A DNA stretch of 64,000 nt from Escherichia phage vB_EcoM_112, in sequence record NC_024125.2. One strand, 5' to 3'. The translations under genes were made by a program, and so were the position numbers. This document shows, one piece after another, positions 35,665-36,258 of the stretch (position 1 is the stretch's first letter; each line of letters begins with the position of its first letter). The notes under the pieces were generated by a model. The model ran no database searches. It saw only the letters and a list, made by a program, of their open reading frames with translations, and was not told the DNA's origin.

Positions 35665-36258
35665 TTATTTCAGAGAATTAATATATTCCTGAACATCGGC
35701 AGAGGTAGTTTCAACCCCAGAAATATTACCATTAAAGGTTTCAACTCGAGCAAGAGTATCTTCAATATCAACCTTAGTCAGCGCTGCAATTTCAACTACA
35801 TCATCGGCAGTACTAATTCCAAGGGCATTCGCTGCACGAGTTTCACGGATATATTCCAATTTAACTGCAAGTTCTTGGCGAGCATCATCCAATTCAACTA
35901 CTTTCTTAGCGATTTCAATTCGCATTTCAGCATAACCATCAGCTTTAGTAGTCAACTGCTCAGCTGTTCGACGATATAGTAAACCGAGTTTAGCATGCAT
36001 TGTTACATCTTGACCTTCGGAAAGAAGCTTGCGAATTTCACGCTCTTTTGATTCAGCCTGCTTATTCTTTTCGACAATAAGTTCACGAATACGCTTTTCT
36101 TCATTAATAGATTTAACGGAAGCAGTTTTTAGATCTTTAATCTTATCAAGTAGTTTTGCTGCTGCAGCAGTATACTGTTCTTCAACAGATAGATTTTTAG
36201 CCATAGCAGAACCAAGTTTAGTGCGAATAAACTCAACAATTTTCTTCAGTGTGTTCAT
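35665..36258 (-). CDS. coiled-coil protein (possibly PspA/IM30-like)
   Basis: 197 aa, almost entirely heptad-repeat helical; family assignment is tentative. Confidence 0.45.

Follow-up and report, generated by a model that had tools for sequence, protein, structure and literature searches.

The T4 gene e.6, present in the DNA analysed here, very probably encodes a member of the PspA/IM30/Vipp1 family (ESCRT-III superfamily) in shortened form. As judged by alignment and predicted structure, it keeps the N-terminal helix alpha0, the long helical hairpin and the two ends of the alpha4-alpha5 region, between which about 25 residues have been lost. PspA was named after phage-induced stress, and within the ESCRT-III superfamily of membrane-remodelling proteins PspA and Vipp1 are the bacterial branch. 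The gene lies in a stretch of 64,000 nucleotides, hereafter the window, for which the first-pass annotation had guessed the PspA/IM30 family from composition and length alone. The guess is supported by Pfam model PF04012, which recognizes the divergent relatives P0068 and P0066, by profile-profile alignment (hhalign), by hmmsearch of PDB sequences and by Foldseek, all of which agree.

The 197-residue protein singled out in that annotation is an exact ORF of the minus strand, and the encoded sequence matches T4 e.6 at every residue (100% identity); the T4 gene was deposited in 1993 under the name 'msp3' (L13089.1). The window is part of a Tequatrovirus genome, and its positions 35000-37000 are 98% identical to RB18 and to related T4-like phages. 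Its ORFs fit the RB18 gene layout, annotated in the order e (lysozyme), nudE, e.2, e.3, e.4, e.5, e.6, e.7, e.8 and a tRNA cluster with segB; the notes of the RB18 record have the labels e.6 and e.7 swapped. The features of the gene and its product are collected in Table 1.

Table 1. Features of e.6 and of its predicted product in the window
Feature	Position	Strand	Basis
e.6, 197 codons and stop, divergent phage PspA/IM30-family protein (very probable)	35665..36258	-	ATG-to-stop ORF
T4-early-type sigma-70 promoter of e.6	36286..36314	-	GTTTACA (-35), 16-nt spacer, TG-extended TATTAT (-10)
Shine-Dalgarno AAGGAAA, 4 nt 5' of the e.6 ATG	36263..36269	-	Direct sequence reading
GGGGC-UUCG-GCCCC hairpin, 6 nt past the e.6 stop, between e.6 and e.5	35644..35659	-	
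Residues 3-22, predicted amphipathic cationic helix at the N-terminus, corresponding to PspA/Vipp1 alpha0	36193..36252	-	AlphaFold2, low pLDDT
Residues 25-80, hairpin arm 1 (alpha1), 56 residues	36019..36186	-	AlphaFold2, pLDDT 85-97; aligned to PspA/Vipp1 alpha1
Residues 81-85 (EGQDV), hairpin tip loop	36004..36018	-	Non-helical in both AlphaFold2 models; aligns with Vipp1 NGEEN
Residues 86-145, hairpin arm 2 (alpha2+3), 60 residues	35824..36003	-	AlphaFold2 models
Residues 151-173, two short helices, putative remnant of PspA alpha4, then (V/I)(E/D)TF motif	35740..35808	-	AlphaFold2, alignment
Residues 186-196, C-terminal helix, D-x-x-x-Y-(L/I)-x-S-L-K	35671..35703	-	AlphaFold2; counterpart of the PspA alpha5 end (xQLAQLKAK)

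The promoter was found in a promoter scan with 10 of 12 matches plus the TG extension, and L13089.1 has -35 and -10 signals annotated at the same place. The hairpin that follows the gene is without a clear U-tract and appears as 'stem_loop putative' in L13089.1 and as 'terminator' in some relatives; it is a putative transcript-end or stabilising structure. A promoter-like site of its own (TTTACA...TAnnAT, 9-10 of 12 matches) precedes each of e.6, e.7 and e.8 on the minus strand, at 36286-36314, 36676-36704 and 37013-37041, respectively. This suggests that the three genes form consecutive single-gene early transcription units.

Published data on T4 e.6 (T4p129, P39224) class its RNA as 'early', and the protein was seen by mass spectrometry in infected cells, with middle-class kinetics, while the level of host PspA was flat throughout T4 infection (PMC9697503 supplement). 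The gene is dispensable under laboratory conditions in knock-down and transposon screens, which give no function for it. Its CRISPRi-ART entry reads 'unknown function, Not Fit' (PMC11879866 supplement), and in HIDEN-SEQ it was non-essential, with insertions tolerated at 43/43 sites (10.1101/2025.11.20.689424 supplement). In the literature searched, nothing ties e.6 or T4 to PspA, and two papers on PSP phylogenomics do not discuss phage homologues.

Searches that start directly from T4 e.6 do not reveal the relationship. The single sequence had no Pfam match, with PF04012 absent even at E <= 10, and nothing significant in PDB (phmmer), NCBIfam or PADLOC; it belongs to PHROG 1203, function unknown. 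For none of 31 close homologues was PF04012 among the top families. When the profile of these 31 sequences (A1) was run with hmmsearch against 1.84 billion representative proteins, only 45 hits were obtained at E <= 1e-3, all of about 200 aa or fragments. Because no canonical-length PspA was among them, a profile-to-sequence search from the T4 side is too insensitive. The family is small and is so far found only in phage genomes or on unattributed metagenome contigs. From the other side, tblastn with E. coli PspA against phage records turned up no more than two canonical PspA genes, both located on metagenomic contigs and neither tied to e.6. A scan of genome contigs for PspA diversity returned only Enterobacterales sequences of at least 78% identity, and the wider diversity was supplied by viral contigs. 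With A1 and a narrow alignment (A2), hhalign reached a probability of only 17.7%; a signal emerges when divergent e.6 members are included and the PspA profile is broader.

The divergent members thus serve as a bridge to PspA/IM30. Among 24 such sequences (A3), which share 18-38% identity with T4 e.6, five matched Pfam PspA_IM30. Two of them exceeded the curated gathering score of 33.9: P0068 with 39.0 bits (E 8.9e-10) and P0066 with 35.1 bits, both covering positions 2-143 of the PF04012 model in register. In e.6-family members the match extends to position 143 of 220. Neither a lack of PspA profile matches nor a better match to another coiled-coil family, the outcomes that the first-pass annotation had set against its own guess, was seen: the next-best Pfam family for P0068 and P0066 had an E value of 0.03-0.045, about 10^6 to 10^7-fold worse. 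The source database already tags P0068, which comes from Ackermannviridae, with PF04012. As judged by sequence, both proteins are unquestionable relatives of e.6 and full-length members of its family. A1 retrieves both from the 1.84 billion proteins in full-length matches of about 1e-20, and BLASTP of T4 e.6 against P0068 gives 1e-13 with 25% identity over 194 aa, end to end with one gap. Furthermore, tblastn from P0068 reaches the annotated e.6 genes of PEi20 (2e-7) and IME-CF2 (6e-20). With A3 as the query for hmmsearch of all PDB sequences, Vipp1/PspA entries took first place and 9 of the top 11 positions, with a best E value of 2.8e-4 and residues 1-142 aligned to 1-143; E. coli PspA (4WHE) was among the top matches.

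Profile-profile comparison gave the same result. We aligned 73 e.6-family sequences with 20 PspA-family sequences, comprising PspAs from E. coli and other enterobacteria, Synechocystis Vipp1 and eight canonical PspAs from IMG/VR viral contigs. The local hhalign alignment had a probability of 92.4% and a score of 50.2, and the global one, running from residue 1 to the C-terminus, had a probability of 94% (P 2.4e-8). Control scores were far lower: 17-19.5 with reversed profiles (probability <= 1.2%), 12.4 ± 2.0 after shuffling of columns and 13.6 ± 1.7 after shuffling of heptad blocks. Comparisons of the e.6 family with PspA/Vipp1 ranged from 92 to 96% in probability (P 2e-9 to 5e-7), always in one N-to-C register, which was shared by four independent PspA subsets. 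The divergent half of the family alone gave 95-96%. Against each independent target subset it gave 54-85%, i.e., 54-81% with enterobacterial PspA, 81-85% with cyanobacterial Vipp1 and 68-74% with viral PspAs, and the alignment invariably started at query residue 4 and PspA residue 1. With a single Vipp1 sequence as the target the probability was 81-93%. A small PspA HMM made here ranked e.6 first of the 347 stop-to-stop ORFs in the window. In a Foldseek search of PDB with the e.6 model, ranks 1-8 were taken by Vipp1, followed by CdvB2. Among the viral structures of BFVD the e.6 family itself came first, followed by a 'PspA/IM30 family protein' of Acinetobacter phage ME3 and a giant-virus 'Snf7 family protein'. 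These lines of evidence partly share the same sequences and models; taken with that overlap, they make us highly confident that e.6 is truly homologous to PspA/IM30, although very diverged.

Two AlphaFold2 models of e.6, built from 31 and 59 aligned sequences (mean pLDDT 74.7 and 78.5), are both all-helical with ~84% helix, the helices spanning residues 3-22, 25-80, 86-145, 151-160, 166-173 and 186-196. The pLDDT is 85-97 in the hairpin and below 50 at residues 176-181. The predicted core is the long antiparallel hairpin of alpha1 and alpha2/3 that is found in the PspA/IM30 and ESCRT-III superfamily. The earlier description of the protein as almost entirely heptad-repeat helix was right about the helix and overstated the heptads, since the 3.5-residue hydrophobic periodicity had a z-score of 2.3 relative to shuffles in helix 25-80 and of 1.0, i.e., not above shuffles, in helix 86-145. 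The periodicity of E. coli PspA is similarly modest (z = 1.2 and 3.8). The PspA-like charge pattern noted at that stage does hold, with 34% charged residues in e.6 against 37% in E. coli PspA, and with no proline against one.

The terminal parts of the protein also align with those of PspA. Residues 3-22 of e.6 align to PspA residues 1-22, carry a net charge of +4 and have a hydrophobic moment of 0.45, as compared to 0.49 in PspA and 0.61 in Vipp1; the mean over the whole e.6 protein is 0.26 ± 0.11. In the C-terminal region, T174 and F175 are invariant among close e.6 members, and Y192 shows almost no variation in the family as a whole. This conservation indicates that the shortened C-terminal region is under selection.

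Like the predicted e.6 protein, E. coli PspA (PF04012; 4WHE) consists of alpha0, a hairpin of alpha1 and alpha2/3 of nearly equal length, and then the alpha4 and alpha5 motifs. In the global alignment, the start of PspA alpha4 (MARFESFER) pairs with LARVETFNG of e.6, and the end of alpha5 (SEQLAQLKAK) pairs with the C-terminal segment (EYINSLK). The two proteins have a similar charge density and about 15% identity, but e.6 has 197 residues and PspA 222, with about 25 residues fewer in the alpha4-alpha5 region. The conserved PspA hinge KAEDP(E/Q)K, which joins alpha0 to alpha1, is absent in e.6, which has K21-N-L-S-V-E-E-Q and shares only the lysine and one glutamate. Close members have K-N-x-S-V-E-(D/E)-Q at this position, and divergent members are intermediate, e.g., 'KMTDYEKD'. 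The genetic setting is different as well: e.6 belongs to a lytic phage, has no pspF, pspB, pspC, pspD or pspE context, and is preceded by an early phage promoter instead of a sigma-54/PspF-dependent one.

Cyanobacterial Vipp1/IM30 (Synechocystis sll0617, Nostoc Vipp1; 7O3W, 6ZVR, 8QBR) gave the best PDB matches, both by sequence profile and by Foldseek, and e.6 is collinear with it over residues 1 to about 145. In contrast to Vipp1, e.6 lacks the Vipp1-specific C-terminal extension and has a shorter alpha4-alpha5 region. LiaH of B. subtilis is the best NCBIfam match of P0068, with residues 7-137 collinear with 3-134, but the score is 16.5 bits against a cut-off of 380. For ESCRT-III proper (Snf7/CHMP/CdvB), e.6 shows no signal to Snf7 families at the sequence level and is tied to them only via the PspA/Vipp1 branch.

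Canonical PspAs of phages (Acinetobacter phage ME3; IMG/VR contigs L083-L090) resemble e.6 in that no pspF or pspBC is named in the annotations seen. Unlike e.6, they are 219-243 aa long, keep the KAEDPEK motif, are recognisable by BLAST and share 24-33% identity with E. coli PspA. The proteins of the e.6 clade form a lineage of their own, shorter and far more diverged and confined to Straboviridae and Ackermannviridae. Canonical PspA genes were also seen on large viral contigs (IMG/VR L085-L090, 77-360 kb) and in MT835668.1 and MT839532.1, where host contamination or prophage borders are possible. Since canonical full-length PspA also occurs on viral contigs, phage-borne PspA exists in at least two unrelated forms. 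That canonical PspA genes are carried on phage genomes is already known, and they bear that name in databases. What appears to be new is the placement of T4 e.6 and a large Straboviridae family in the PspA/IM30 superfamily as a distinct, shortened and partner-less lineage.

Homologues of e.6 were found by tblastn in 1098 phage records, by name mostly of Escherichia, Klebsiella, Shigella and Aeromonas phages; together with the detection of the protein by mass spectrometry, this establishes e.6 as a real gene. All inspected records are Straboviridae, and the P0068 branch belongs to Ackermannviridae (Kuttervirus FEC14, Taipeivirus IME250). The genomic position of the gene differs between phage groups. 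Copies in T4-like phages adjoin e.5-e.2, nudE and e; that of RB43 lies between nrdD and nrdG, that of Aeromonas phage 65 adjoins gene 31, and the Ackermannviridae relative is near DNA ligase and helicase genes. Across the lineages examined, no PspF, PspB/C or LiaI-like partner is conserved near e.6, and its neighbours have no Pfam domain.

The reference copy in RB43 is frameshifted. In NC_007023.1 the homologue at about 2850-3447 is split, with the N-terminal part (MIKKIFSFLNNKVETVIEQNTSPEDAW...) in one frame and the part from about residue 52 to the end in another, and the annotation 'e.6' covers just a remnant of 97 aa. The RB43 gene is either a pseudogene or the product of a sequencing error.

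The position of e.6 upstream of e.4, e.3 and e.2, which encode proteins with hydrophobic segments, and that of the Kuttervirus copy upstream of a predicted membrane protein, loosely recall the liaI-liaH arrangement. Unlike LiaI/LiaH, this membrane-protein neighbourhood is not kept in RB43, Aeromonas phage 65, avDM4 or IME250. A conserved LiaI/PspBC-like membrane partner downstream of e.6 was not supported, as hydrophobic neighbours occur, among the lineages compared, only in T4-like phages and Kuttervirus. In the window itself, e.2-e.5 (33825-35623, minus strand) share a C-terminal motif, which reads KFVKECREYVK in e.5, KFVKESRCKSQ in e.4 and EFVSDCRKIK in e.3 and is also present in e.2. Strongly hydrophobic segments number two each in e.4 and e.2 and one in e.3. 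No Pfam domain was found in e.2-e.5, and their PHROGs are of unknown function or a generic 'membrane protein'. These sequence features suggest that e.2-e.5 encode a small group of paralogous membrane proteins that have a cytoplasmic tail in common.

As for function, the first-pass annotation had proposed that a phage homologue could stabilise the inner membrane or interfere with the host Psp response, and either may apply to e.6. T4 shuts off host transcription. The sigma-54/PspF-dependent psp operon of the host therefore cannot be induced, and for that reason the phage would supply its own 'effector-only' PspA; the flat level of host PspA is consistent with a blocked psp response. We see an even chance that e.6 is such a regulator-free, effector-only membrane-maintenance protein, made early. 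The gene is transcribed within minutes of infection, from an early promoter of its own, and e.6 comes with neither a Psp regulator nor a membrane anchor. The protein would attach to the stressed inner membrane by its alpha0 helix, while the hairpin and the C-terminal helix would mediate oligomerisation. We infer that ion leakage would thereby be limited and the proton-motive force held until programmed, holin-timed lysis. The stress could arise from tail-tube penetration, superinfection, and the insertion of phage membrane proteins and holin.

Alternatively, e.6 could be a homologue that was repurposed as a soluble coiled-coil adaptor in a non-membrane process, e.g., as a scaffold of a phage or host complex. 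We regard this as unlikely, because the predicted amphipathic cationic alpha0, which is the membrane-binding element of PspA/Vipp1, is kept family-wide, and because whole-length collinearity with PspA indicates that the ancestral architecture is retained. Several observations do fit an adaptor, i.e., the loss of the KAEDPEK motif and the shortening of alpha4-alpha5, the lack of a conserved membrane partner, the location among replication genes in Ackermannviridae and the absence of a laboratory phenotype.

Another explanation is that e.6 acts as a decoy on the host Psp system, binding PspF, PspB/C or host PspA itself (by co-polymerising or capping) and thereby silencing or hijacking the envelope-stress response. 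The region covered by the E. coli PspA(1-144) fragment (PDB 4WHE) holds the PspF-binding determinants, and these fall in alpha0 and the hairpin, the conserved part of e.6, while the alpha4-alpha5 polymerisation region is the part that is shortened. Early expression would also suit a decoy. Enterobacterales and Aeromonas, the hosts of phages that bear e.6, generally have psp operons, which is in agreement with such a target. On the other hand, in the HH comparisons e.6 is no nearer to enterobacterial PspA than to cyanobacterial Vipp1 or the viral PspAs, so that it is not a recent host-derived mimic, which weakens this explanation. With psp induction precluded by the T4 shut-off and host PspA flat, there would be little left to silence, and the strong conservation of the C-terminal helix and of the (V/I)(E/D)TF motif points to a self-assembly or other interface that is kept. 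A decoy function is thus improbable.

We give a similarly low probability to the proposal that e.6 is a counter-defence factor, which would patch or delay inner-membrane damage by abortive-infection effectors in an ESCRT-III-like manner. Such damage could come from RexAB-type channels, CBASS or retron transmembrane effectors, or bacterial gasdermins. This would have a parallel in eukaryotic ESCRT-III, which delays pyroptosis and necroptosis through the repair of pores made by gasdermin and MLKL. With this role e.6 would be dispensable on defence-free laboratory strains, which would be consistent with the absent laboratory phenotype, and the way the gene has moved from one hyperplastic genome region to another would fit the behaviour of other anti-defence genes.

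It is very unlikely that the likeness to PspA is a coiled-coil artefact and that e.6 is an unrelated helical hairpin or a 'host specificity' or 'tail completion' protein, given that two members score above the curated Pfam cut-off by a wide distance from other coiled-coil families, reversed and shuffled profiles fail, every comparison has the identical register from residue 1 to the C-terminus, and the structural-protein names have no supporting domain match for a gene that is early, not late. Such names were seen for many e.6 homologues, e.g., in OR352952.1 and MW250787.1, in UniRef ('Host specificity protein') and in Klebsiella phage UPM 2146 ('Tail completion protein'). Without domain support, and at odds with the early expression of T4 e.6, these names are probably propagated mis-annotations.

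If e.6 is indeed a membrane-maintenance protein of the PspA family, T4, the best-studied lytic phage, and over a thousand sequenced relatives would carry their own stripped-down 'phage shock protein', and membrane maintenance during infection would be partly phage-encoded. A T4 early gene that was 'hypothetical' for 30 years would acquire a concrete hypothesis. As a natural minimal PspA of 197 aa without regulators, e.6 could be useful for dissecting the membrane-binding and polymerisation parts of the fold. It also offers a testable connection between repair of the ESCRT-III type and anti-phage defences that act on membranes.

Further observations concern the region beyond e.8. A 231-aa ORF at 37210-37905 (minus strand) overlaps an ARAGORN call of tRNA-Lys(UUU) at 37809-37902 (minus strand), which at 94 nt is unusually long. 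The real gene at this place is probably the internal 157-aa ORF starting with MKSYTQFLNEA, which corresponds to RB32ORF132c of RB18. A strong terminator-like hairpin is present at 37202..37179. Within the tRNA cluster, at 38156-38821 (minus strand), a 221-aa GIY-YIG-type protein (MFHYIYKITNKINNKIYIGAHS...) is encoded at the position that the SegB homing endonuclease has in RB18.
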